From a virus, in the IMG/VR virus record IMGVR_UViG_3300041809_000571, positions 51,841 to 115,840 of that record: a stretch of DNA of 64,000 nt; one strand, given 5' to 3'. A program made the position numbers and the translations under genes. Positions within the stretch are counted from its first letter, which is position 1. Each line of letters begins with the position of its first letter. The notes below the pieces were generated by a model that saw only the letters and a list, made by a program, of their open reading frames with translations, did not search any database and was not told where the DNA came from. Below are positions 2,930 through 50,644 of this stretch, piece by piece.

Positions 2930-5257
2930 ATGGGCCTAAGCTTTACAGCCAGCTTTCTCATCACATCCCGCCCTTCGGATGCCAAAATCGACCTCCTCAC
3001 GAGGCAGATGCAGCTTTCCAAGGCACAGGTGGAGATGTGCATCGCCGCCGACCCCAGCCCCAATCAAACAGACTTTGTGACTTGGATTGCCCGGATGGTG
3101 AAGGGCGGTCTCATTCGCCTCCCCGAGGACGCTGAGGGTATCAAGGAGAACCTCTCCCGTTTTCAGACGCAGAAGCGCCAGCCGGGCTTTGGCGGCAACA
3201 AGGATATCAACAGTTACAAGACCCCCGGAGACCTTGCCCGGACCCTCGAAGCGAATGCCATGACGGTCATTCGCTCCAAGAATTTTGACACCTTCAAGAA
3301 CTTGCCGGGACAGCAAATCATCGTCCAAAAGGGTGACTTCGTTATCTTCAAGGTGACTAACCCCGAGGCGCTCCGCATTCTCTCCGACTCTACGGAGTGG
3401 TGTACCCGCCATGGTGCCGCCAGCAGCTATCTCCGAACCGGACCCAGCTATGTGATTTTCTACCGGGGACTTCCCTTTGCTCAGCTTCACCCCTCCAGCA
3501 ACCAATACAAGGACCGGAGAGATGAGTCGCTTATCGTGCAGTACCATCAGCCGAGTACGAAAAAGCGTTATAAGGGGTGGGGACATTACGAGGACGTTCC
3601 GGGACCCCTCATTGGTACCGCCATCACCCATCCGATAGCTCGGGAAGCAGCGGACTACATCGCTGCTGTGGACCCACAGGTGGATGCGTGGATGAAGAAG
3701 CAGAACCTTAGTGACCCGGTGATATTGGGTCAACAGCTTCTCACCAATAATGACCACTGGATAGATGGTCATATACTGACCGGCACCCCGCTCACCCCAG
3801 AGGAGATGGAGTATCTTAAAATCCAGTGGCCCTCGGTGGGAATCCCTAAGCTCAAGAGGTATGCGGACAAATTCTATCCGAGGCAGCGGTGGGAGTTGTT
3901 CGAGTATGTTCTGCTTAAGAACCTTGGCAAGTACATTGGAACGGCTGTAGAATATGCCAATGACCATATCCGTGGTCGCTGGCCCGCCATCGAACCTGCA
4001 CTCCTGCGCCGGGCGGCGATAGACAACGATAACGCCACACGGGCACTGAATTACGCTGCCACGGTCATCAAAGGACGTTGGACAGCGTTGGAGCACAAGT
4101 TCTGGACTACCGCTGGCAATGAGACCATGGGTAAACTGGCTGTTCAGTATGCTTTGAAGATTATCAAAAAGCCGTGGCGGGAAATATCCACGCAACGGTC
4201 TTTCGAGTTCGGCGGTATGCCCCGGCCTGAAATGCTCATGTGCAAGTATGCTCCCAAGGAAGCCATGGAGTATGCCAAGGCGTTTCACATTGAATCGTGG
4301 GACGAGTTGGGAGAAATCCTGCTTGCTGACCACAACTATACCACCTACTTTGACTACTTGAATAACATGAAGGGGGGAGCGAGAGACCCCCGGTTGGAAG
4401 CCATGCTCACCCAACCCAAGTCAGTTTTCTACAATGTTCAAGAGCCTATGGATAAGCGGGACCGGAGGCAGTGGATGCGTGATAACCCCGGAAATCCTGT
4501 GGTCCCCGCCACGAAATCGACCACGAAATATGTCAATAAAGATGCCGTGGGGGCTGACTACGCTGAGCAGATTATCAAGGGTCGCTGGCCTGAGTTGGAG
4601 GAGCGATACCTCAACGAGATGAGGGATAAAAAGAATGAACTTATCCCGGATGATTTTGAGCGTCTGGAGCGTAACTCATACCACGATGACAAGTTTCCCG
4701 CTGCCATGGGTGGATATATCAAAGATGTTATAAAAGGTCGCTGGCCTGAGTTGGAGGCCGTTCTTCTCCAAAGGTATAAGGACTACCCCGACATGTGGCA
4801 GAGCAATCAAGCTCTGGTTGCCGGGTACCTCAATCTGCTCAAGCCTGAAAAGCACACCTATGAGGTTCCCAACTGGAATAAACCTCTGGAGCCGGTTGTG
4901 GGGATATGGCCGGATGGTGAAGACATTCTGAAACAGCGCAGTCAACCCTACGAGGATAAGTTGGAGAGAATTGCCGAGGCTGAGTATCGACAGGAGACCA
5001 CTTATCCCGAACCTGACCGGGATGACCCCTTGTGGTATCCAGCGCACGAGATTGCCGAGTATGTACGCTGGCTTCGTCAAAATGGTGAGGACTGGCCCGA
5101 AGGCGTTATCCTGTTGAATAAATTAGAAGATTTCCGTGATGCCAAGCGCCGGGAGGCGAAGGCACAAGGGAAGTACTATACCTCCCTGACCAATCGAGTG
5201 GCCTCTAACGAATTACTCAACCCCAAGAGAATCCTACCGCTTGAAAAAAATCCCTAA
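2930..5257 (+). CDS. large repeat-containing protein (recurring KGRWPxLE / RGRWPAIE motif)
   Basis: 775-aa ORF; at least four copies of I(K/R)GRW(P/T)xLE spaced through the protein; no enzymatic motif recognised. Confidence 0.5.
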   Translation: MGLSFTASFLITSRPSDAKIDLLTRQMQLSKAQVEMCIAADPSPNQTDFVTWIARMVKGGLIRLPEDAEGIKENLSRFQTQKRQPGFGGNKDINSYKTPGDLARTLEANAMTVIRSKNFDTFKNLPGQQIIVQKGDFVIFKVTNPEALRILSDSTEWCTRHGAASSYLRTGPSYVIFYRGLPFAQLHPSSNQYKDRRDESLIVQYHQPSTKKRYKGWGHYEDVPGPLIGTAITHPIAREAADYIAAVDPQVDAWMKKQNLSDPVILGQQLLTNNDHWIDGHILTGTPLTPEEMEYLKIQWPSVGIPKLKRYADKFYPRQRWELFEYVLLKNLGKYIGTAVEYANDHIRGRWPAIEPALLRRAAIDNDNATRALNYAATVIKGRWTALEHKFWTTAGNETMGKLAVQYALKIIKKPWREISTQRSFEFGGMPRPEMLMCKYAPKEAMEYAKAFHIESWDELGEILLADHNYTTYFDYLNNMKGGARDPRLEAMLTQPKSVFYNVQEPMDKRDRRQWMRDNPGNPVVPATKSTTKYVNKDAVGADYAEQIIKGRWPELEERYLNEMRDKKNELIPDDFERLERNSYHDDKFPAAMGGYIKDVIKGRWPELEAVLLQRYKDYPDMWQSNQALVAGYLNLLKPEKHTYEVPNWNKPLEPVVGIWPDGEDILKQRSQPYEDKLERIAEAEYRQETTYPEPDRDDPLWYPAHEIAEYVRWLRQNGEDWPEGVILLNKLEDFRDAKRREAKAQGKYYTSLTNRVASNELLNPKRILPLEKNP

Positions 5258-5296: not shown

Positions 5297-5779
5297 ATGT
5301 CTATGGCTTCTACCAAAGCGCAGGCTGTATCGCCTATCACATTGGAAGACTTAAAGCTGGAACCTTCCAGCAAACCCCTCGCCCTGATTTTTTCGGGAAA
5401 GTTCAACTACAAGGGCTACGGCAGACAAATCGCTGCCTGTCATCTGGACGCCTATGTAGGCCCCGACCGCAAAGTCTTTATCGCCACGGAGATTGACACC
5501 AACCCCGGTTGTTCCATCACCAATGGAATTGAAATGGTCGCTGATGCCGTCGAAGAGCAGTTTAGCCTTGGGCACGTATTCGGCCCCACGTCCGACCGCA
5601 CCAACGTCCTTGTGGAACACTATGATAACCGGAGCTATTCCAGCCATCCCGACCGGGATGACTACTCCATCATGGAATTCAAGGGTGAGAACGGCAGCTA
5701 CAAGTATTACAGCAACCCCGGCTGGTGGGGGGTTGAGAAGTCCGAAATTGAACGCCTGATAGGAGGGCAGCTTGTCTAA
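5297..5779 (+). CDS. hypothetical protein
   Basis: 160-aa ORF with GAGGAG RBS and upstream promoter motif. Confidence 0.45.
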   Translation: MSMASTKAQAVSPITLEDLKLEPSSKPLALIFSGKFNYKGYGRQIAACHLDAYVGPDRKVFIATEIDTNPGCSITNGIEMVADAVEEQFSLGHVFGPTSDRTNVLVEHYDNRSYSSHPDRDDYSIMEFKGENGSYKYYSNPGWWGVEKSEIERLIGGQLV

Positions 5780-6284
5780 CCTGAACATCGCCGTATGGGA
5801 CGACCCCGTACTCAGCAAGAAGTGTGACCCCGTTCCTCCCGAGGATTTTGGGGACGCCCTGAAAGTCTTGGGCCTGCAAATGATTGACACCATGAAAGCC
5901 GCCAAGGGTGATGGCATCGGCCTCGCTGCTCCACAGGTGGGCCTGTCCAAGCGTCTCTTCGTAATGAAGCGGTTAAGCTGTGAGGCGACCACGAAAGAAA
6001 TAATCGCCGTTAATCCAAGAATTTCTCTCCGGGGCGAGTATAAGGTATTGGAGGAGGGTTGTCTCTCCTTCCCCGGCTACTACGGTCCCGTGTGTCGTCA
6101 AGAGGAATGTACGATGACGTATCAGGACCCACTGGATGGCAGCGAGTGGACGGTGGAGCTTACGGGTCTGGATGCTCACTGCGCACAGCATGAGCTTGAC
6201 CATCTGGATGGCATCATGTTCTTCGACCGGATGCCCAAACACTATCGCAAAAAGCTTTTGAAGGAATGGAGCAAAAAGCATTGA
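5772..6284 (+). CDS. def: peptide deformylase
   Basis: All three PDF motifs: GIGLAAPQVG, EGCLSFPG, QHELDHLDG. Confidence 0.8.
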   Translation: MSNLNIAVWDDPVLSKKCDPVPPEDFGDALKVLGLQMIDTMKAAKGDGIGLAAPQVGLSKRLFVMKRLSCEATTKEIIAVNPRISLRGEYKVLEEGCLSFPGYYGPVCRQEECTMTYQDPLDGSEWTVELTGLDAHCAQHELDHLDGIMFFDRMPKHYRKKLLKEWSKKH

Positions 6285-6444
6285 GTTGCCCGGTCCCTGC
6301 CGGTTTGTAGGACCCGCATCGCCACGGGTCTGACGTTACGGTGGGGAAACAGGGACGGCTCTTTTAGGAAAGCCAGAAGCCTCATAACCTTCCGGCATCC
6401 GTTCGACTCGGATGGAGCCGTCCCCATGGGCGCAAGGGATTAAG

Positions 6445-6639
6445 ATGAAATACAGGTACCGTTTCGGGTCTGGTTGGAGGAAGGTGACGGTCCATGCGTG
6501 CAGTTTCGACACTGCTGTATGTAAGGCTCTTGACGAACTGGACCGTAGAATGATTAAAGCCGGGGGTGAACCTCCTGTGGCTCACGCCCTGCGTTGCATC
6601 GAAACGGATGACCGAAAGGTAAAAGTTTTCGGCGGGTAG
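6445..6639 (+). CDS. small basic hypothetical protein
   Basis: 64-aa ORF (MKYRYRFGSGWRK...) inside the 640-bp low-coding region; stop overlaps start of tRNA-like element. Confidence 0.25.
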   Translation: MKYRYRFGSGWRKVTVHACSFDTAVCKALDELDRRMIKAGGEPPVAHALRCIETDDRKVKVFGG

Positions 6640-6802
6640 CTCAGTTGGAGTTCTTGGGCTGGAGGGCGATAGGCCATCGTCGCCAGTCTGAGACTTATTC
6701 GAGGCCGGGGAGGCGAGTGACCATAGCCTTTTCGGAATCGGGTAGAGAGCACCCTCATTTACATGAGGGAGGTCGGTTGTTCGAGTCAGCCCCCGCTGAC
6801 CA
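6630..6802 (+). tRNA. tRNA gene interrupted by ~95-nt insertion in the D-loop (intron-containing or pseudo-tRNA)
   Basis: 5' CGGCGGG-TA-GCTCAGTTGG then insertion, resuming TAGAGAGC; anticodon-like arm CCCTC/GAGGG with 8-nt loop ATTTACAT; T-arm GGTTG-TTCGAGT-CAGCC; 3' acceptor CCCGCTG pairs with 5' end; A + CCA encoded. Confidence 0.4.
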
Positions 6803-6929
6803 GTTTATGGTAGGAGCATGTGGACCGGGACCGCAACCCGGTCTGAGCATGTGGTAGCGGAGTGAGATTTCCAATCTCCGTATCAAAGGGCTGGTAACCC
6901 TAAGCCTGCCCAAATTTCAAGGAGGTTGT

Positions 6930-7217
6930 ATGGCATCGAAGCGTAATCCCCATCTATCAAGGTTGAGCACCGAGGAGTTGGAAGCCGAACTTGAAGCTCG
7001 GGAAGCGGAGGAAAATGCGCCTCCCCCGCTAGTTGAGAAACCCGACTGGAGCAATCTGAAAACTTTCGTGGTGAGCCAGATTGAGGAAATCTCCAAGCCA
7101 GACGGCTATGCCAAGGACTTCGAGCACTATGTGTTCGAGCAAGTCATGAGTACCCTTTACGGCAATGGATTTTGGGCTTGGTACAACGAAGGACCCTGCG
7201 AGCGTGCCGGTGGTTAA
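6930..7217 (+). CDS. hypothetical protein
   Basis: 95-aa ORF, AAGGAGG RBS. Confidence 0.45.
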   Translation: MASKRNPHLSRLSTEELEAELEAREAEENAPPPLVEKPDWSNLKTFVVSQIEEISKPDGYAKDFEHYVFEQVMSTLYGNGFWAWYNEGPCERAGG

Positions 7218-7225
7218 GGACAACC

Positions 7226-7648
7226 ATGACCCCGTTTGGAAAGGTGTTCCAAATCCGTTGGAAGGAAGCACTCGGCAGACCCGAGTGCCCGTACCTCTAT
7301 CGGTGGACGCTTATCATCTTCGGGTTTTCCATCCGGCTCCATCACTGGCTCCGGTCAGATGACCGGCGTTTTTTCCACGACCATGCCAGCAATTTCGTAT
7401 CTATAATTCTCAAAGGTCATTACAAGAATGTAACCCCGGATGGGACCTTCGAGGTTAAGGCCGGGTCCATCTGGAAATCGGACGCCTTGCGCCGTCACTA
7501 CTTAGACATCCCCAAAGGTGGGGCTTGGACTCTGCTCTTCTGCGGTCGGCCCTATCACAAGTGGGGATTCTACGTGAAGGGGCACAAGTGGCGTCCTTTA
7601 CGCTATTTCAGCAAGTTTGGAATCATTCAAGACGAGAATTACCAATGA
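7226..7648 (+). CDS. hypothetical protein
   Basis: ORF 7172-7648 trimmed to internal ATG after AAGGA. Confidence 0.4.
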   Translation: MTPFGKVFQIRWKEALGRPECPYLYRWTLIIFGFSIRLHHWLRSDDRRFFHDHASNFVSIILKGHYKNVTPDGTFEVKAGSIWKSDALRRHYLDIPKGGAWTLLFCGRPYHKWGFYVKGHKWRPLRYFSKFGIIQDENYQ

Positions 7649-8523: not shown

Positions 8524-9645
8524 ATGGAACTCGAAAAGACATCGCACAGTGAGCAGTACATGGATTACTCCGGGGGTAAGGAAAATGCCCCCACGCTGAC
8601 CGTTATGGTCGGCCCGGCTGGCTCGGGCAAGTCCACCCACGCCCGCAGTCTTGTCAATTGGGCAGCGGGAGCGACCGTCCGGGTAAACCGGGACACCATC
8701 CGTGCCATGCTCTACTGTGATTCCCCTTGGAACCACTCGAAGGAAGATGTGGTCCGCAAGTATGAGGAAGAGGGCATCCGTATGTTCCTCGCCATGGGAC
8801 TCAACGTCATCGTGGATGACACCAACTGCGTGTCCCGTACCCGGCAAAAGCTGGAAGAGATTGCCCGTGGCGCTCGGGTAAAGTTCTGCCTGCACGTCAT
8901 GAACGTGGACAAGGAAGAGTGTAAGCGGCGGAACGCCCTACGCACCGGCAAAGAATGCGTGCCCGAGGAAGCCATCGACCAACAGTTCAAGCGGCTGCGG
9001 GAAACAACCGTCCGCCCGGCTGGCTACGGTCTGGATGAGACCAATCGGGCAGTGGACGACTGGAATGAGCTTATCGCCGCTGGTATGGGGCGGAGCGAGT
9101 TCCGGGAGCGCCTCCCCGGCGCACCGTGGGTGTTCTGCGACGTTGACGGAACCCTCGCAGAGAACTTAGGGGAACGCAATCAGTTTGACGAAAGCAAGGT
9201 TCTTTTGGACGCTTGCCGGGAGCCGGTAGCGGCATGGGTCCGGGCGCTTTATCCGACCCACAACATCGCTATCGTCAGCGGTCGGCACGACACCTGCTGC
9301 AACGATACCTGTGACTGGCTTGAAATGTACAAGGTTCCTTTTGACTTGATTCTGATGCGTCCGGCGACGAGTTATGTCTCCGACCACATTGTCAAGCAGA
9401 ACATCTTAGATGCCTTGCTCAAAGTCATCGACAAGGGTCGCATCGCTTTCTCCATTGATGACCGCCCGAAGGTGGTCAATCAGGTGTGGAGGAATGCTAA
9501 AATCAAGGTCTATCCGGTCGGCGGCATGGTCGCCGCACCCGGCGAGCAGGCTACGGCGCACACCGCCTCCTGCACCTTTGACCTTGCCAATGTCAAGAAG
9601 GGTTTCCGTCGCTGCCCGTCTTGCGGGGCACTGGAGGATTTCTGA
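8524..9645 (+). CDS. pnk: polynucleotide 5'-kinase / 3'-phosphatase (T4 Pnk-like)
   Basis: N-terminal P-loop GPAGSGKST; C-terminal HAD phosphatase VFCDVDGTLA plus downstream SGR and DD motifs; domain order as T4 PseT. Confidence 0.75.
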   Translation: MELEKTSHSEQYMDYSGGKENAPTLTVMVGPAGSGKSTHARSLVNWAAGATVRVNRDTIRAMLYCDSPWNHSKEDVVRKYEEEGIRMFLAMGLNVIVDDTNCVSRTRQKLEEIARGARVKFCLHVMNVDKEECKRRNALRTGKECVPEEAIDQQFKRLRETTVRPAGYGLDETNRAVDDWNELIAAGMGRSEFRERLPGAPWVFCDVDGTLAENLGERNQFDESKVLLDACREPVAAWVRALYPTHNIAIVSGRHDTCCNDTCDWLEMYKVPFDLILMRPATSYVSDHIVKQNILDALLKVIDKGRIAFSIDDRPKVVNQVWRNAKIKVYPVGGMVAAPGEQATAHTASCTFDLANVKKGFRRCPSCGALEDF

Positions 9646-10034
9646 TGAGCCTCAATCATATTTCAATGTCACAGGCTTTGGGCGTCTGGTCGGAACTGGA
9701 AGCAGCCTATTACGGCAAGAACGGTTTCGGCAGGGATACGGCGGAAATTTACGCCTATCGCTTGCAGGAGTTCTGCCCCACCGCCGCTTACGCTTCTGGT
9801 AGTCCCTCATCTTCCATAGGGGTGGAAGCGCAGAGAGAAGCCGCCACGAGGGCCGGGAGAGCCTTACACGAGCTTATCCGACTCTTTCAGGCACATCACA
9901 ACTGCCGGGTGGTCGTGATGGATTACCGGGAGGATGGTAACGGGGAACACCCGGATATCCTTCTGGAGGGATTTGACCACCGGGTCAGCATCAAAGTCAT
10001 GCGGGACGAAAAACCACTGGAGATGAAGTCATGA
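9645..10034 (+). CDS. hypothetical protein
   Basis: ATG overlaps pnk stop; 129 aa. Confidence 0.4.
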   Translation: MSLNHISMSQALGVWSELEAAYYGKNGFGRDTAEIYAYRLQEFCPTAAYASGSPSSSIGVEAQREAATRAGRALHELIRLFQAHHNCRVVVMDYREDGNGEHPDILLEGFDHRVSIKVMRDEKPLEMKS

Positions 10035-11302
10035 AGCTGGAAAAGCTGCTGAATATTGAGAAGCTGAACGAACAGGTAAGGGATGGCTACATCTCTGTCC
10101 GGGCACACCCCAAGCTGCCCCTGCGCATCTACAACTACTCCAGCCAATGCACCTTCGAGAACAAGTGGTCCTTGGAGTCGTGCATCTGCCGGGGCCTCAT
10201 CGTGGACTCCAATGACAACGTTGTGTCTCGTCCCATCGCCAAGTTCTTCAACTTGGGACAGACCGGACCCCTGCTGGTCAGGGATTGGTTCCTCCGGGAT
10301 GAAAGGGGAGAGAACAAGGGTGTCGTCAAGGACCAGACCATTGACCCGGCGTACCTTCTCGAATGTGCCCGGCTGTTTAAGAATCCCATTACCATCACCC
10401 GCAAGTTAGACGGGTGGGCGGGAATCTCGTGGCACTATGAGGGCATCTACGGAGTTGCCAGCCGGGGTTCTTTTGATTCACCGGGGGCGCAGTATGCCAC
10501 GGAGAAGGTGCAGAAGTTCGTCAAGTACGGGGCGTTCGCCGACTTTCTCCCCGAGGATACCACCCTGTTCTTCGAGATTATCTCCAAGGTCACCAAGGTG
10601 GTGGTCCCCTACAACTTCGAGGGGCTGGTGCTTATCGCCGCCATTGCCAACGAGACCGGGGAGGAATTGGAATATCCCGAGCTTGAGGCTTTCCACAAGC
10701 AGTTGAACAGCTATGCCAAGGACCGGGACTGGTGCCGGTTGGTGCCGAAGTTTGACATGTCGGTGGAAGAGTGCATGGCGGACAAAGACATGACGGAGGA
10801 GGGCTATGTCACCGCCGTCCACCGGCCCCATCTGCCGCCTGTCCGGGCGAAAATCAAGCTGGCAGAGTACTGCCGTCTGCACCGCATTGTGACTGGTGTA
10901 ACACCGCAGAAAATCTGGAATGAGCTTTCCGACCCCATGTCACCGTGGATTTCCCACAACTCCAAGAAGGATTGGACCACGGGTGAAATCAAGGTGGACA
11001 TGTCCGTCCCCAAGGAATTCGGGGAGTGGGTCTACCAGTGGCAGGTGAAGATAACCGGCGTTTTCCACGAGAAGTTGGTTCGAGCCGTGGAGGCGGAGAG
11101 CCATCTGACAAAACTGGCAACCGACTCGCCTGCTGAAAGGAAGGCACAGGTGGAGTGGCTCCGGGCAAACTTTGCTGATGTTTCCAAGGCGGCAATGTTG
11201 CTGCACCAAGGCAAGATTGTGGACGCCTACAACGAACTGTGGATTCAGGTCCGTCCTTTTGGTCGGGAAGAGTATTACTACCAAGACGGAAAAGGAGAGT
11301 GA
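10031..11302 (+). CDS. ATP-dependent RNA ligase (covalent nucleotidyltransferase superfamily)
   Basis: Motif I RKLDGW (KxDG) plus downstream ligase-like segments; adjacent to Pnk as in phage tRNA-repair modules. Confidence 0.6.
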   Translation: MKLEKLLNIEKLNEQVRDGYISVRAHPKLPLRIYNYSSQCTFENKWSLESCICRGLIVDSNDNVVSRPIAKFFNLGQTGPLLVRDWFLRDERGENKGVVKDQTIDPAYLLECARLFKNPITITRKLDGWAGISWHYEGIYGVASRGSFDSPGAQYATEKVQKFVKYGAFADFLPEDTTLFFEIISKVTKVVVPYNFEGLVLIAAIANETGEELEYPELEAFHKQLNSYAKDRDWCRLVPKFDMSVEECMADKDMTEEGYVTAVHRPHLPPVRAKIKLAEYCRLHRIVTGVTPQKIWNELSDPMSPWISHNSKKDWTTGEIKVDMSVPKEFGEWVYQWQVKITGVFHEKLVRAVEAESHLTKLATDSPAERKAQVEWLRANFADVSKAAMLLHQGKIVDAYNELWIQVRPFGREEYYYQDGKGE

Positions 11303-41259: not shown

Positions 41260-41512
41260 CACTGCCTTAGTTGTCATCTGTATCATCGCCATAAGCGGAT
41301 TTTTGTTCTTGGGTAGTACCCTCAGTCACCTGCTTAACTATCTTGAAGAGATACACCGGCAGGCGCATGAAACCGAGATGGCAAAACTCGGCCTGACTTA
41401 TAACGACGACCTAGAAAGGTGGGTGCCCTATGGGCAAGGCGAAGAACAGCCTGACAAGCCGAATGAAGGAGAACTACGAACTCCGGTGCCGCCACTGGCT
41501 CCCGAGGCGTAG
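41249..41512 (+). CDS. small membrane protein
   Basis: GGGGGAAG RBS; hydrophobic helix ALVVICIIAISGFLFLGS. Confidence 0.4.
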   Translation: MLSDTALVVICIIAISGFLFLGSTLSHLLNYLEEIHRQAHETEMAKLGLTYNDDLERWVPYGQGEEQPDKPNEGELRTPVPPLAPEA

Positions 41513-42200
41513 TTACGTCCTTATCCGAGTGGACGGCAGAAGCTTCCACACATGGACCAAGGGCCTAAACAAGCCCTATGACGTGGAAATGATGAAGTGC
41601 ATGGACACCGTGGCGTTCAAGCTCTTTGAAGAGATTCCGGGAGCGAAGTTCGGCTATGTCCAGTCGGATGAAGTCAGTCTGCTCATCACGGACTTTGACA
41701 AGATTGGTACCGAGGCGTGGTTCGACAACTGCCAGAACAAGCTGGAGAGCGTCTCCGCCTCCATCGCCACAATGGCTTTCAATCGGGAAGTCATTAGGTA
41801 TGCACGTGCAAATCTTGAAATGGATATCACTAAACTGGGGTCTAAAGCACCCGATGCCACGTTCGACAGCCGGGCGTGGACCATACCGGACTACGTGGAA
41901 GTGGAGAACTACTTCATCGACCGGCAGAAGGATGCCATCCGAAACTCCGTCACTATGCTGGCAAACTACTACGCCAGCCACAAGAGCCTGCTCAAAAAGA
42001 AGGTCAGTGACCGGCACGAGGTCATTCGGGCAGCGGGTGACGACTGGGAAAAACACCCCCTGCGTTTTCGCCGGGGCGCAGCGGTGTACCGAGTCGGAGG
42101 AATCAGTAACGGTGTAGCAATCGACCAAGACACCCCGGAATTCACCAAAGACAGGGGATACCTCAAGCGGCACATCCCCCGGCACTGGGCGGATGATTAG
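41430..42200 (+). CDS. Thg1-like protein (tRNA-His guanylyltransferase family, 3'-5' polymerase)
   Basis: YVLIRVDGRSFHTWTKGL and GYVQSDEVSLLI match Thg1 core motifs (vVRLDGrnFhrF / yGQSDEySFvf); start may be internal. Confidence 0.7.
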   Translation: MGKAKNSLTSRMKENYELRCRHWLPRRSYVLIRVDGRSFHTWTKGLNKPYDVEMMKCMDTVAFKLFEEIPGAKFGYVQSDEVSLLITDFDKIGTEAWFDNCQNKLESVSASIATMAFNREVIRYARANLEMDITKLGSKAPDATFDSRAWTIPDYVEVENYFIDRQKDAIRNSVTMLANYYASHKSLLKKKVSDRHEVIRAAGDDWEKHPLRFRRGAAVYRVGGISNGVAIDQDTPEFTKDRGYLKRHIPRHWADD

Positions 42201-49397: not shown

Positions 49398-49706
49398 GGA
49401 CCCGTACAAGCGTTCAGGGCAGAGGTAGTCCGGCTGGAGAACGAGCTTATGTCAGCGAAGATACGGCTGGCGGAGGCGGAGTTGCGGTGTTGCCATGCGT
49501 GGAGTAAACCGGCGTATGACCCCATCATCCACGAAGCGTACCATATCGCTGGCGACCCGCCCGGCACCATGGGGGTTGACCGGCAGCTTCCCATGGATGT
49601 ACCCCGGCAGGAAATCCCCCGCTGGAAAAGAACTTGTAGCTCCTGCGGGATAACGGAGACAACGCAGCAAATCAGAGAGGATATCAAAAAGGTACCGGTG
49701 TTCTAA
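49398..49706 (+). CDS. hypothetical protein
   Basis: 102-aa ORF. Confidence 0.35.
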   Translation, partial: GPVQAFRAEVVRLENELMSAKIRLAEAELRCCHAWSKPAYDPIIHEAYHIAGDPPGTMGVDRQLPMDVPRQEIPRWKRTCSSCGITETTQQIREDIKKVPVF

Positions 49707-50644
49707 TGGAATTCTACGGAAAGCTCAAACAAGCGCTCGTGGAGATTGGGGAAGTTGACCCTAATAGCCTGATTCTCGCTTTTGCCTCGGGAAGCTGGCA
49801 GCATGGTGCCCGGATGGACGACAAGGCCGACCTTGACGTGTCCGGGGTGTTCGTGGGTCGCCCGGAGGAAGAACTCCAGCTTGACAACGAGAACCCTCGT
49901 AAAATGGGTCATGCGAGTGCTAGCACGGCAGGAGACAAGCGCAAGAACACCAAGGCGGACGTTGACATCAAAGCCTACTCTCTACGCCGCTGGGCGGGTC
50001 TGGCGCTTAAAGGCAACCCTTCGGCACTTTCGTTCCTGTTTGTCCCGGACAGCATCAAGGACATGTCTTTGGAGCCGAAGGCACGTTGGCCATGCCCCTA
50101 TGATGCGCAGCAGTGTGAGTATCCAAGCTGCATAAGCGACCATGAGGGTTACCGGGACAGCACGTGCGTGAGGCGTAACCGGGAGGCGCATACAAACACG
50201 GTGTGGGACACCGTGATTCTGCCCAACACCAATGACTTTCTGTCCGCCCGAGCGGCGAAAGCTTTCATCGGTCTGGCGGATAACCAGTTTCACCGGATGC
50301 TTGGAGAAGGCACGGGTAAACACGGGACCCGGAAAGCCGAGAAGGAAGAATACGGCTACGACCCCAAAGCGGCTATGCACATGATTATAGGCATTCAAGA
50401 GTGCCTTGAGCTTTTGCGGACCGGAAGGATGACTTTCCCCCGCCCGGAAAAGACCCTATTGCTTAACATCCGTACCGGAAAACTTGGTCTAAAAGGTGTA
50501 TTAGACCTATATGGGGTTTTGCGGGATGAAGTGCCCGAGGCGGAGAAGAACACCCCGCTTCCCCCGGAATGTGACCGGGGAAAGGTCAGCAAACTCGTTA
50601 CGGGGGCGATATTGCAGCATTGGAAAGAGAGGAAGTGGCTATGA
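49706..50644 (+). CDS. minimal nucleotidyltransferase (Pol-beta superfamily) protein
   Basis: FASGSWQHGARMDDKADLDV matches GS-x9-13-DxD NTase signature. Confidence 0.5.
   Translation: MEFYGKLKQALVEIGEVDPNSLILAFASGSWQHGARMDDKADLDVSGVFVGRPEEELQLDNENPRKMGHASASTAGDKRKNTKADVDIKAYSLRRWAGLALKGNPSALSFLFVPDSIKDMSLEPKARWPCPYDAQQCEYPSCISDHEGYRDSTCVRRNREAHTNTVWDTVILPNTNDFLSARAAKAFIGLADNQFHRMLGEGTGKHGTRKAEKEEYGYDPKAAMHMIIGIQECLELLRTGRMTFPRPEKTLLLNIRTGKLGLKGVLDLYGVLRDEVPEAEKNTPLPPECDRGKVSKLVTGAILQHWKERKWL

Follow-up and report, generated by a model that had tools for sequence, protein, structure and literature searches.

A conserved family of interrupted valine-type tRNA-like genes in huge phages

We analysed a stretch of 64,000 nt (hereafter the window), part of a 364-kb phage genome. 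Judged by its sequence and its relatives, the segment 6630-6802 encodes a real RNA, maintained by selection and derived from tRNA-Val(UAC), whose D loop is interrupted by a two-hairpin insert. Together with related interrupted tRNA-like genes it forms a conserved family, apparently undescribed so far; in the literature we searched, phage tRNAs with inserts in the D loop, or with other inserts that are not group I introns, are not described. The reading we prefer, tentatively and among several competitors, is that the product is a specialised, probably valine-accepting tRNA-like RNA in which the insert is retained and whose function lies outside ordinary decoding.

Anatomy and conservation of the tRNA-like gene

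The initial annotation had described a tRNA gene with an insertion of ~95 nt in the D loop. A complete cloverleaf was indeed found, and the insert measures 97 nt (Table 1). It lies at position 20, where the D loop has a variable pocket exposed to solvent, and brings this loop to 104 nt, beyond the ~7-11 nt of a compact D loop, while total length exceeds the usual 70-95 nt. The nucleotides that build the L-shape are all present (U8, A14, G18-G19, A21, R15-Y48 and the T loop UUCGA), and the acceptor begins with the pair C1-G72 followed by G2.U71. The exons end with ...GCTCAGTTGG on the 5' side of the insert and resume with AGAGCACCCTCA on the 3' side; in-silico removal of the insert joins ...GCUCAGUUGG to AGAGCACCCUCA and leaves a product of ~76 nt. 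The 8-nt anticodon loop noticed initially was likewise confirmed by reading of the sequence (AUUUACAU), and the arm as we read it presents the Val anticodon UAC. The same arm may alternatively be drawn with a 6-bp stem and a 6-nt loop.

Table 1. Features of the interrupted tRNA-like gene and its surroundings, in window coordinates
Feature	Positions	Strand	Remarks
Conserved structured RNA just upstream	6287-6432	+	Lineages A-F; 46 predicted pairs, 7 with compensatory changes
Interrupted Val-type tRNA-like gene	6630-6802	+	173 nt; acceptor stem, D stem, anticodon arm, T arm, A73, CCA
5' part of the tRNA-like gene	6630-6648	+	Identical in lineages A, B, C; kept in all others
Acceptor 5' strand CGGCGGG	6630-6636	+	Sequence reading
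U8 A9	6637-6638	+	Sequence reading
D stem 5' strand GCTC	6639-6642	+	Sequence reading
D loop A14-G19, AGTTGG	6643-6648	+	Sequence reading
D-loop insert, two hairpins	6649-6745	+	97 nt; D-loop position 20, between G19 and A21
Insert hairpin HP1	6652-6693	+	Apex GGCGAU-AGGCC-AUCGUC
Insert hairpin HP2	6695-6745	+	11-nt apical loop GAGUGACCAUA
A21; D stem 3' strand GAGC; A26	6746; 6747-6750; 6751	+	D stem paired in 100% of cells, 16 family members
Anticodon arm, stem CCCTC/GAGGG	6752-6756 and 6765-6769	+	All 5 stem pairs with both-side changes within the family
Anticodon loop ATTTACAT	6757-6764	+	8 nt; read as one extra A, then U32 U33 U34 A35 C36 A37 U38
Variable loop AGGTC	6770-6774	+	Sequence reading
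T arm GGTTG TTCGAGT CAGCC	6775-6791	+	T stem with compensatory changes
Acceptor 3' strand CCCGCTG	6792-6798	+	Acceptor stem with compensatory changes
Discriminator A73	6799	+	Sequence reading
Encoded CCA	6800-6802	+	Sequence reading
Small metal-cupin gene	7226-7648	+	140 aa; PHROG 4786
RNA heal-and-seal genes, downstream, same strand	8524-11302	+	Pfam families of called genes
PNKP	8524-9645	+	Position kept in lineages A, C, E, F, G
T4 Rnl1-type RNA ligase	10031-11302	+	Seen in A, C, G, where fetched loci extend that far

Such a gene escapes the usual searches. In the intact sequence ARAGORN called no tRNA at 6630-6802; it called the other 37 tRNAs of the window, two of which have odd anticodons and were read as having 6-nt loops. 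After in-silico deletion of the insert a tRNA with an odd anticodon loop is called, drawn for one such splice with the 4-nt anticodon 'ttac'. Rfam gave no match at the locus, either at the gathering threshold or at E<=10, and permissive thresholds returned nothing for these RNAs from the locus, its orthologues and members of the wider family. A similarity search of the INPHARED phage collection gave no match, and exact patterns of the 5' exon, the anticodon arm and the T arm retrieved only lineage B or unrelated sequences from IMG/VR, JGI metagenomes and GTDB genomes. Since ARAGORN called none of the insert-bearing family members, tRNA counts in huge-phage genomes are underestimates.

The locus exceeds a chance match, as its architecture returns, with compensatory changes, in assemblies and lineages that are independent of one another. 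In a scan of the whole window, a T arm together with a fully paired 7-bp acceptor occurred at only three sites outside annotated tRNAs. The folding z-score is -4.3 for the whole RNA 6630-6802 and -4.7 for the insert alone.

Orthologues were found in seven related phage lineages (A-G). The comparison of homologous loci which the initial annotation proposed thus gave a uniform result, every lineage bearing the D-loop insert; no uninterrupted orthologue was found, the pattern search yielding one unrelated tRNA. In the core helices of close lineages 97.3% of cells are paired and six pairs are changed on both sides, against 1.8 in shuffles. A search with the conserved 140-aa cupin encoded downstream led us to a wider family, present in many huge phages. 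Among 16 of its sequences pairing reaches 99.1%, and 14 of 21 pairs have changed on both sides (6.9 in shuffles; 0/500). Invariant in these 16 members are C1-G72, U8, A9, A14, A21, A35, C36, G53, T54, T55, C56, A58 and A73. The Levitt pair covaries, being G15-C48 in most members and A15-U48 in lineage E. The conserved tertiary nucleotides (U8, A14, G18-G19, A21, R15-Y48, T54 T55 C56 A58) are either invariant or covarying in the alignments. A35, C36 and the discriminator A73, present in 16/16 members, are the identity set of valyl-tRNA synthetase (ValRS) established by studies in E. coli.

The insert diverges faster than the flanking genes (lineages A and C share 60% in the insert and 84-90% in the flanks), and still, in the alignment of lineages A, B, C, E and F, 15 of its 28 pairs are changed on both sides, compared with 7.0 in shuffles, none of 500 of which reaches 15. 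A covariance model of the insert recovered an independent member in the family locus L114 (E = 2e-7). The loop motif RAGUGRCCAUA of HP2 is common to lineages A, E and F, and a GGCC-containing HP1 apex to A, B, C, E, F and L114; these motifs were not found in lineages C (for HP2), D and G or in members of the anticodon-loop type. Searched for in IMG/VR, the HP2 loop pattern gave 55 matches, all by chance except lineage B. A coding function was rejected, because insert lengths (97, 95, 96 and 92 nt across lineages) differ by non-multiples of three and the insert has no ORF.

Departures from a decoding tRNA are frequent in the wider family. Its Val-type genes carry inserts of about 30-150 nt in the D loop, in the anticodon loop, in both or in neither, and often lack U33, a 7-nt loop or a compact D loop. 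Inserts of 77-153 nt lie within the anticodon loop in seven members (L116, L121, L122, L127, L135, L142 and L170). The covariance model did not detect these, so the notion of one functional module fails for the family as a whole; homology between D-loop and anticodon-loop inserts, suggested by motif resemblance seen by eye, gains no support from the model and was set aside. Eight nucleotides make up the anticodon loop of lineages A, B, C and E and of L114, and six that of L164; several members have lost U33 to A or G; and the T stem is bulged or mismatched at pair 51-63 in lineages C, D, F, G and in L114 and L115. Among lineages A-G, a 7-nt loop with U33 and a purine at 37 occurs only in F and G (AUUACAU, that is U33-UAC-A37).

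Genomic context

The gene stands away from phage tRNA arrays, always between a deformylase gene and the cupin-PNKP genes. The small metal cupin is its most constant neighbour across huge phages. More than 671 cupin homologues exist, the listed best matches being about 60-90% identical, and among the 69 IMG/VR cupin loci that we fetched many have a long tRNA-like gene immediately upstream. Structure prediction and fold search retrieved generic small metal cupins only, and the predicted fold offers no functional clue. The other neighbouring small ORFs received no annotation from Pfam or PHROG. Further downstream come PNKP and Rnl1, separated by a 129-aa ORF.

Just upstream lies a second conserved structured RNA (6287-6432), a tRNA-like module without a D arm. 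It combines an 11-bp stem, a T arm (AUCCG-UUCGACU-CGGAU) and an arm whose loop CUCAUAA resembles the anticodon loop of tRNA-Met, and has no Rfam match. Its position suggests that it may belong to the same functional unit as the interrupted gene.

How the RNA may work

Our preferred reading builds on gene structure, conservation, covariation, valine-type identity nucleotides and synteny, and supposes the following. RNase P and 3' processing would release an RNA with the module still inside. ValRS would recognise it through A35, C36 and A73, making charging with valine probable. Normal use by the ribosome would be barred by the bulky module at the elbow and by the irregular anticodon loop, to which several lineages add an irregular T stem. 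The RNA might then act with the cupin protein, amid the phage genes of tRNA repair and counter-defence (PNKP, Rnl1, Thg1-like and RlaP). Insert retention, valylation, ribosome exclusion and a connection with the cupin or with repair enzymes are all suppositions of this reading. Towards a host nuclease that targets tRNAs, the RNA could play the part of decoy, sensor or substrate; alternatively it could be an aminoacyl donor or cofactor.

Several observations speak for a role other than decoding. Features required for decoding (loop size, position 33, T stem, integrity of the anticodon loop) are broken repeatedly across the family; the gene is placed apart from the tRNA arrays; and the phage of L164 carries a canonical tRNA-Val(UAC) as well as its cupin-linked Val-like gene. 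Against the preferred reading, no further tRNA-Val was found in the window or in the 9 kb after it. The genes of lineages F and G, minus insert, are nearly canonical tRNA-Val(UAC) with one T-stem mismatch or bulge, which gives them the look of intron-containing decoders. Inserts at two distant sites of the L-shape are natural for introns and awkward for a domain dependent on geometry. Finally, lineage B has lost the segment 6773-6856, and with it the T arm and the acceptor 3' strand, while in lineage D the locus is rearranged and the cupin gene truncated; the tRNA-like gene is therefore dispensable.

The strongest competitor, possible if on balance improbable, is that we deal with a true interrupted tRNA-Val and a small protein-dependent intron of a new kind. 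A phage or host endoribonuclease would cut at either end of the structured insert, PNKP would heal the RNA ends and Rnl1 would seal them into a working tRNA-Val. As in intron-containing tRNA genes generally, the tRNA is interrupted, the exons are conserved and the insert is variable, here fast-diverging and still structured. Without the insert, F and G read as tRNA-Val(tac). Inserts are placed either in the D loop or 5' within the anticodon loop, a variation of site also known from archaeal tRNA introns, and in several members of the anticodon-loop type the last seven loop nucleotides make a canonical loop (CUUACAU in L142, AUGACAU in L122). PNKP always lies 1-2 kb downstream of the tRNA-like gene, with Rnl1 beyond it wherever the fetched locus extends that far. 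T4 Pnkp and Rnl1 can reportedly replace yeast tRNA ligase (Schwer et al. 2004), and yeast and plant tRNA splicing as well as T4 repair after anticodon-nuclease attack offer a parallel heal-and-seal route.

The difficulties of this competitor begin with the cut. No endonuclease candidate was found, the neighbouring ORFs having no Pfam or PHROG match, and none of the window ORFs scanned, which represent part of the 364-kb genome, matched a splicing endonuclease of the EndA type, an enzyme that is unlikely here since the host is bacterial, as indicated by the deformylase gene and the encoded CCA. Across lineages the insert junctions share no conserved nucleotides, motif or helix, and no bulge-helix-bulge (BHB)-like structure or junction-joining helix appears in minimum-energy or consensus folds. 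Many members would remain non-canonical even when spliced, through loops of 8 or 6 nt, replacement of U33 by A or G, or bulges in the T stem, and the uninterrupted members L141, L149 and L164 keep aberrant anticodon loops all the same. We regard as doubtful the more specific proposal that huge-phage tRNA-Val genes harbour a new class of small structured introns, placed at D-loop position 20 or 5' in the anticodon loop, removed by an endoribonuclease and followed by rejoining of exons through PNKP and Rnl1. Such splicing might even be coupled to attack by a host anticodon nuclease, the tRNA maturing only when the defence fires.

The insert is not a group I or group II intron: group I introns have ~200 nt or more, a P1-P9 core and a place in the anticodon loop, and group II introns at least ~600 nt and usually a reverse-transcriptase ORF, whereas the insert has 97 nt, lies in the D loop, lacks an ORF and matches nothing in Rfam. 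The family's inserts, put at 55-150 nt in this comparison, likewise fall short of either class. Group II introns are rare in tRNA genes, a D-loop site being reported for one (PMC13011429); the BHB introns of archaea may lie away from the canonical position, for example in the D arm (PMC3241643, PMC4090602). No ribozyme or intron family of Rfam was matched by this locus (E<=10) or, at permissive thresholds, by the other family loci, self-cleaving ribozymes (hammerhead, twister, HDV-like/theta, pistol, hatchet) included; together with the featureless junctions this disfavours precise RNA-catalysed splicing.

It is less probable still that the tRNA is a carrier and processing scaffold for the two-hairpin module. 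This module would then be what functions, either as a small RNA or as an element bound by protein, and the tRNA would release or display it; after excision the tRNA may persist nicked, in two pieces. Viral chimeras of tRNA and hairpins do exist, namely the TMER transcripts of MHV68. Strong structure and compensatory changes mark the hairpins, whose loop motifs, RAGUGRCCAUA and the GGCC apex, have been kept over deep divergence. These motifs are, however, absent from the C (HP2), D, G and anticodon-loop-type members, and the tRNA part, including the anticodon nucleotides, is strongly selected, which a mere scaffold would not need.

That the product decodes with an altered reading, as a +1 frameshifting tRNA (quadruplet UUAC) or as an ochre suppressor (UUA), two options of the initial annotation, appears very improbable. 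Its support is the 8-nt loop of the window lineage and the 'ttac' drawn by ARAGORN. The ochre reading is contradicted by the orthologues, for the 7-nt loop AUUACAU of F and G implies that the gene derives from tRNA-Val(UAC) and is no ochre suppressor; in addition, the UUA frame would place G at position 33 in lineage C, and A35-C36 is kept in 16/16 members. All three stop codons are used, with plus-strand ORFs of at least 80 aa covering 79.5% of the window in the standard code, and decoding would require either removal of the 97-nt elbow module or a ribosome that tolerates it. The conserved frame N34-A35-C36 and the same stop usage led us to reject an opal suppressor as well. Extra-sized loops are known from the frameshift suppressors sufD and sufJ and from yeast mitochondrial tRNA-Thr1, which share with the window gene an 8-nt loop having its additional nucleotide on the 5' side; they differ in that loop size in our family is 6, 7, 8 or >100 nt with A35-C36 fixed, and that there is no sign of quadruplet decoding.

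That an insertion struck a tRNA-Val gene, which would since have been decaying by drift as a pseudogene, could be imagined from the truncation in lineage B, the rearrangement in D, the U8C change in variant L043 and the two odd-anticodon tRNAs elsewhere in the window, and deserves hardly any credence: compensatory changes, present in each of the four core helices and also in the hairpins of the insert, largely refute it, tertiary and identity nucleotides are invariant although neighbouring 775-aa proteins are only 42-46% identical, and cupin synteny is kept in many huge phages. The recent disruption that the initial annotation had considered likewise disagrees with an insert present in all orthologues, its hairpins kept by compensation, and with none of the genes being uninterrupted. 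A recent mobile-element disruption was rejected, the HP2 motif being single-copy in the window.

Among known RNAs to which the gene is close, a canonical phage-encoded elongator tRNA-Val(UAC) of bacterial type shares with it the cloverleaf, U8-A14, G18-G19/UUCGA, R15-Y48, A35-C36-A37, A73 and CCA, features found likewise in the 37 tRNAs that ARAGORN calls in the window. The gene differs from it by the 97-nt insert, the 8-nt loop, C1-G72, G2.U71 and its off-array position. The tRNA-like structure of TYMV (a tymovirus; Rfam RF00233) is a viral tRNA-Val mimic that becomes valylated. It resembles our RNA as a virus-encoded tRNA-Val mimic with valine identity nucleotides, a CCA-type end and a use beyond ordinary decoding; it forms, however, the 3' terminus of a genomic RNA, and its acceptor stem is pseudoknotted, whereas the window gene is free-standing and has a normal acceptor, an internal expansion and only putative valylation. 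In Staphylococcus, tRNA-Gly species dedicated to cell-wall synthesis carry T-stem changes that lower EF-Tu binding. The likeness consists in a retained synthetase identity combined with changes expected to bar the ribosome (T-stem pair 51-63); those tRNAs are of normal size with normal loops, and no aminoacyl-tRNA-dependent transferase was identified here.

YrlA and other Y RNAs are tRNA-like noncoding RNAs of the RNA-repair operons rsr-yrlA-rtcBA (PMC4201824, PMC7790460), and a Ro/TROVE protein with a tRNA-like partner has been noted in jumbo phages (PMC7824862). With these the window gene has in common that a tRNA-like RNA is encoded near genes for RNA ligase and repair. In YrlA, however, the tRNA-like domain is circularly permuted and its acceptor-like stem closed, and the 5' and 3' ends pair into the stem that binds Ro; the window RNA keeps its acceptor ends open and has both an anticodon arm and CCA. 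Rfam gave no YrlA match at 6500-6950, and no Ro/TROVE gene was present among the window ORFs scanned. A weak YrlA-like match occurs elsewhere in the window, at 58468-58590. We rejected tmRNA: the window gene has an anticodon arm, and the ARAGORN tmRNA search found none.

Meaning for huge phages

Phage tRNAs are now viewed as weapons against host defences that cleave tRNA, and the interrupted family would add a new element to this picture: a Val-type RNA, invisible to tRNA finders, that stands always beside a highly conserved cupin gene in many huge phages, with PNKP and Rnl1 downstream in the window's own clade. If the insert is removed, the family would represent a new type of tRNA intron and a new splicing route in bacteria and phages, and should the protein-dependent intron prove true, protein-catalysed tRNA splicing would extend to the bacterial world. 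If the insert is retained, as in our preferred reading, this would be the first tRNA with a large 'expansion segment', with a likely non-ribosomal role.

Anatomy and surroundings of the gene

Re-reading of window positions 6400-7000 bore out the initial annotation of a tRNA gene interrupted in its D loop. The tRNA-type 5' start, the anticodon-like arm, the T arm and the complementary acceptor 3' strand with ACCA are all present at 6630-6802, and the insert measures 97 nt versus the ~95 nt noted. The 3' half consists of variable loop AGGTC, T arm GGTTG-TTCGAGT-CAGCC, acceptor strand CCCGCTG, A73 and CCA. ARAGORN called 37 other tRNAs in the window and missed this gene, and Rfam gave no match at its position at gathering score or E<=10; after deletion of the insert in silico, ARAGORN called a tRNA with an irregular anticodon loop. 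Scanning the whole window for a T arm with a 7-bp acceptor stem returned only three sites beyond the annotated tRNAs. Folding z-scores are -4.3 for the entire RNA and -4.7 for the insert by itself, which is predicted to form two long hairpins (HP1 and HP2).

Coordinates of features in the window and in related loci (L-numbers, loci fetched from other phage assemblies)
Feature	Position	Strand	Basis or group
Acceptor 5' strand CGGCGGG, U8 A9 (TA), D stem 5' strand GCTC, A14-G19 AGTTGG	6630-6648	+	sequence reading
Non-tRNA insert, 97 nt	6649-6745	+	sequence reading
HP1 of insert	6652-6693		folding
HP2 of insert	6695-6745		folding
A21, D stem 3' strand GAGC, A26, anticodon arm CCCTC-ATTTACAT-GAGGG, 3' half	6746-6802	+	sequence reading
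775-aa protein	2930-5257	+	
Peptide deformylase gene	5772-6284		
Structured RNA	6287-6432	+	
189-nt insertion	6435-6623		
64-aa ORF	6445-6639		
Hairpin between direct repeats	6815-6854		
140-aa cupin gene	7226-7648	+	
PNKP	8524-9645	+	RNA-repair kit
T4 Rnl1-type ligase	10031-11302	+	RNA-repair kit
Array tRNAs with 6-nt loops	29824-29894, 58939-59012	+	
Thg1-like protein, 3'-5' polymerase	41430-42197	+	RNA-repair kit
RlaP nucleotidyltransferase	49706-50641	+	RNA-repair kit
204-nt tRNA-like RNA	58273-58476	+	
YrlA-like match	58468-58590	+	
197-aa ORF	L049 6752-7345	-	
Additional insert-bearing tRNA-like genes	L162 1655-1830 and 1843-1997; L173 1775-1923; L177 2385-2500; L175 938-1058; L159 1337-1460		
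tRNA-like gene on unrelated contig	L108 1308-1450		
RNase P RNA-like match	L173 4431-4659		

The source of the window is a 364-kb huge-phage contig that stems from peat or bog metagenomes and has no match in the INPHARED collection of phages; our genome view covers 73 kb of this contig. Genes in the window follow the standard genetic code and use all three stop codons. Large tRNA arrays lie at about 29-30 kb and 56-63.5 kb, and the odd gene is located away from them, between the peptide deformylase gene and the PNKP-Rnl1 genes. The RNA-repair kit listed in the table is in line with the RNA-repair systems of jumbo phages that PMC7824862 reviews. The 775-aa protein repeats the motif ...IKGRWPELE... 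at least four times, has no match in Pfam or PHROG, and is syntenic and conserved in all related phages (33-100% identity).

Further RNAs and elements were noticed around the gene. The structured RNA directly 3' of the deformylase gene is 94-97% identical across A-D of the close lineages described below, is also present in E and F, and has no Rfam match. Its outer stem and long hairpin are accompanied by a tRNA-like module that has no D arm and is built of an 11-bp stem, an arm loop with CUCAUAA (identical to the tRNA-Met anticodon loop) and T arm AUCCG-UUCGACU-CGGAU; compensatory changes affect 7 of the 46 pairs in the consensus fold of the whole RNA. The 189-nt insertion is limited to lineage A, being absent from B, C, D and E, and holds the 64-aa ORF (MKYRYRFGSGWRK...), which has no Pfam or PHROG match and runs into the 5' end of the tRNA, where U8 A9 G10 form its stop codon. 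Just 3' of the tRNA, hairpin GACCGGGACCGCAACCCGGTC stands between direct repeats AGCATGTGG (6815-6823 and 6846-6854); it is kept in A, C and D and is lost with the lineage B deletion.

The 204-nt tRNA-like RNA occupies a gap within the tRNA array. It combines acceptor GCCCGUG/CACGGGC, T arm GCGGG-UUCGAUU-CCCGC and ACCA with a complex interior of about 125 nt in which no anticodon arm can be recognised; both ARAGORN and Rfam overlook it, apart from weak Y RNA, tmRNA and Tymo_tRNA-like matches over the T arm only. The weak match to YrlA, a bacterial Y RNA-like family (28.6 bits, E = 3e-4, gathering score 69), has a permuted layout of T-arm-like hairpin, closed acceptor-like hairpin CUCGCC/GGCGAG and D arm GCUC...GAGC; no Ro/TROVE gene was found among the window ORFs scanned. 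Two array tRNAs, called 'tRNA-???' with 2-nt anticodons by ARAGORN, have 6-nt anticodon loops (UUGAGU and CAUUAG, respectively), so irregular anticodon loops occur in other tRNA-like genes of this phage too.

Close lineages and selection on the RNA

Homologues of two proteins encoded nearby, of 95 and 775 aa, served to reach the orthologous loci in other assemblies. In every lineage (A-G) the insert lies between G18-G19 and A21-GAGC, and neither these loci nor a pattern scan of IMG/VR designed for the purpose yielded an uninterrupted orthologue, which speaks against the earlier suggestion of a disrupted pseudogene. The lineage B deletion corresponds to window 6773-6856 and removes the T arm, the acceptor 3' strand and the downstream hairpin, and in lineage D the locus is rearranged and the downstream cupin gene truncated; the gene is thus dispensable in some lineages. 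Also missing from the lineage D locus are the 95-aa gene and the cupin gene's N-terminal half, and an inserted 197-aa ORF that no other lineage has separates its deformylase gene from the conserved RNAs.

Close lineages and members of the wider cupin-linked family (percentages, identity with the window's own 775-aa protein)
Group	Loci	Identity	State of the gene
Lineage A	window, L043-L048	100% (775-aa gene missing from L043's contig)	as in window
Lineage B	five IMG/VR contigs	98%	T arm and acceptor 3' strand deleted
Lineage C	L006	88%	D-loop insert 95 nt
Lineage D	L049	90%	D-loop insert 55 nt, additional 18-nt hairpin in anticodon loop
Lineage E	L050	46%	D-loop insert 96 nt
Lineage F	L051, L052	42%	D-loop insert 92 nt
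Lineage G	L054, L055	42%	D-loop insert 114 nt
Family	L114		D-loop insert, same two-hairpin module (independent match of insert covariance model, E = 2e-7)
Family	L173, L177		D-loop insert of other kinds
Family	L116, L121, L122, L127, L135, L142, L170		anticodon-loop insert, 77-153 nt, 5' of anticodon
Family	L049, L115		inserts in D loop and anticodon loop
Family	L141, L149, L120, L164		aberrant anticodon loop without large insert

With inserts trimmed in silico, the close-lineage cloverleaf is paired in 97.3% of cells, and both-side changes occur in 6 pairs, compared with 1.8 in shuffles (none of 500 reached 6). Compensation is seen in the acceptor stem (CGGCGGG/CCCGCUG in A, CGGUAAG/CUUACUG in F), the T stem (GGUUG/CAGCC in A, GGGGG/CCUUC in E) and the anticodon stem (CCCUC/GAGGG to CAUCC/GGAUG in D); the tertiary Levitt pair is A15-U48 in E and G15-C48 in most lineages. 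These compensatory changes in the core helices mark the product of the window gene as an RNA under selection and folded like a tRNA, as opposed to a decaying pseudogene.

The insert itself folds into two hairpins in A, B, C, E, F and G, with an HP2 apical loop of 11 nt in A, E, F and G. When A, B, C, E and F are aligned, pairing holds in 84.7% of insert cells, and both-side changes affect 15 of 28 pairs as against 7.0 in shuffled alignments (0 of 500) and at most 4 with partner columns slid, counts that refer to a consensus structure derived from this very alignment. Insert turnover outpaces that of the flanking genes: A and C share 60% identity in the insert versus 84-90% in the flanks, A and D 41% versus 72% in the deformylase gene. 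The HP2 loop motif RAGUGRCCAUA is kept in A, E and F, and an HP1 apex with GGCC persists. At the insert junctions, lineage comparison revealed no conserved nucleotides and no linking helix. Since insert lengths differ by non-multiples of three, the insert is non-coding, and a coding function was rejected.

Lineages F and G possess a canonical 7-nt anticodon loop, AUUACAU (U33-UAC-A37), and ARAGORN calls their in-silico spliced sequences tRNA-Val(tac). Loops of the window and lineage E (AUUUACAU), B (AUUCACAU) and C (AGUCACAU) carry one additional nucleotide on the 5' side and are otherwise Val-type. The initial annotation had proposed an 8-nt loop presenting UUA or UAC; the length holds, and so does UAC, in view of the F and G loop, but UUA is not supported, as the ochre-reading frame would put G at position 33 in lineage C and coding sequence offers nothing in its favour. 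Judging from the UAC loops of F and G, G33 in C and normal stop usage, the window gene is derived from tRNA-Val, with suppressor reading unsupported.

The cupin-linked family

The 140-aa gene encodes a small metal cupin (PHROG 4786; fold search) that is unusually conserved, with >671 homologues and about 60-90% identity among the best matches listed; N-terminal extensions on some database cupin entries are translated tRNA T arm and acceptor strand. Among the 69 IMG/VR loci fetched around cupin homologues, a long tRNA-like gene lies directly upstream of the cupin, on the same strand, in many huge phages. ARAGORN and Rfam missed every insert-bearing member.

In 16 distinct sequences with inserts trimmed in silico, arbitrarily inside loops but without effect on the counted stems, the cloverleaf is paired in 99.1% of cells and both-side changes occur in 14 of 21 pairs, compared with 6.9 in shuffles (0 of 500); these statistics leave out L131, L136, L151, L155, L156, L167 and L168, which gave no confident parse. 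Invariant are C1-G72, U8, A9, A14, A21, A35, C36, G53, T54, T55, C56, A58, C61 and A73, and 15 of the 16 have G.U or A-U as pair 2-71. ValRS is known from work in E. coli to recognise A35, C36 and A73, all three among the invariant positions. Position 34 may be U, C, G or A, and therefore all anticodons in these sequences are valine. Position 33 is frequently non-U, and the anticodon loop has 6, 7, 8 or >100 nt. Not all members encode CCA; those of the window's clade and some others do. One phage (L164) has a cupin-linked Val-like gene with 6-nt loop UUUACG and a canonical tRNA-Val(UAC) in a nearby array.

Other huge phages contain more insert-bearing tRNA-like genes, of 116-176 nt, upstream of their cupin homologues. 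Some have non-Val anticodon loops, CAGAUAA (L177, Ile-like, A33) and GUGAAAA (L173, Phe-like), so interrupted tRNA-like genes may extend beyond the Val type. An unrelated 94-kb IMG/VR contig carries a tRNA-like gene (GGGCTGTAGCTCAACTGGTAGAGC...GTGGGTTCGACTCCCAC) with apparently ~80 nt extra after the D arm, and a weak archaeal-type RNase P RNA match (44 bits, E = 3e-9, gathering score 84) lies within a huge-phage tRNA array.

Retention or removal of the insert

The window RNA belongs to neither the group I nor the group II introns, shows no BHB-like structure in its predicted folds that would place it with the BHB introns, and is no member of tmRNA, YrlA or any Rfam ribozyme family. It resembles, without membership, the TYMV tRNA-like structure, which can be valylated, as well as archaeal tRNAs carrying non-canonical introns, the tRNA mimics of the Y RNA type encoded in RNA-repair operons, and non-proteinogenic tRNAs tuned against EF-Tu. 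No phage or bacterial tRNAs with such inserts were found described in the literature searched; group I introns in anticodon loops and six cases of group II are all that a recent survey of introns in bacterial tRNAs records (PMC13011429).

We are dealing with a conserved, structured, valine-type tRNA-like gene that carries large structured insertions at tolerated loop positions. Features of ribosomal decoding (7-nt loop, U33, compact elbow, regular T stem) are repeatedly lost, and synteny is fixed, with the cupin gene family-wide and, in the window's clade, also with PNKP (plus Rnl1 in loci long enough to include it). Because of this conservation, the invariant nucleotides of valine identity, the lost decoding features and the synteny, we tentatively suggest that the insert is retained in the mature RNA and that this RNA is a specialised tRNA-like molecule which probably accepts valine and works outside ordinary decoding.

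The main rival, possible yet doubtful, takes the inserts for a new class of small protein-spliced introns, with the adjacent heal-and-seal enzymes rejoining the exons. Insert sites that differ between members, the near-canonical form of F and G after splicing and the PNKP/Rnl1 linkage would all suit such introns, but neither a junction motif nor an endonuclease candidate was found and many members are still non-canonical once spliced. It is unlikely that the tRNA is a scaffold for a hairpin RNA, and, in view of the compensated core and the valine-type loops, a pseudogene and a frameshift or suppressor tRNA are both highly improbable.

If the insert is indeed retained, the RNA might serve as decoy, sensor or substrate in a conflict over tRNAs or, alternatively, as a partner of the cupin.
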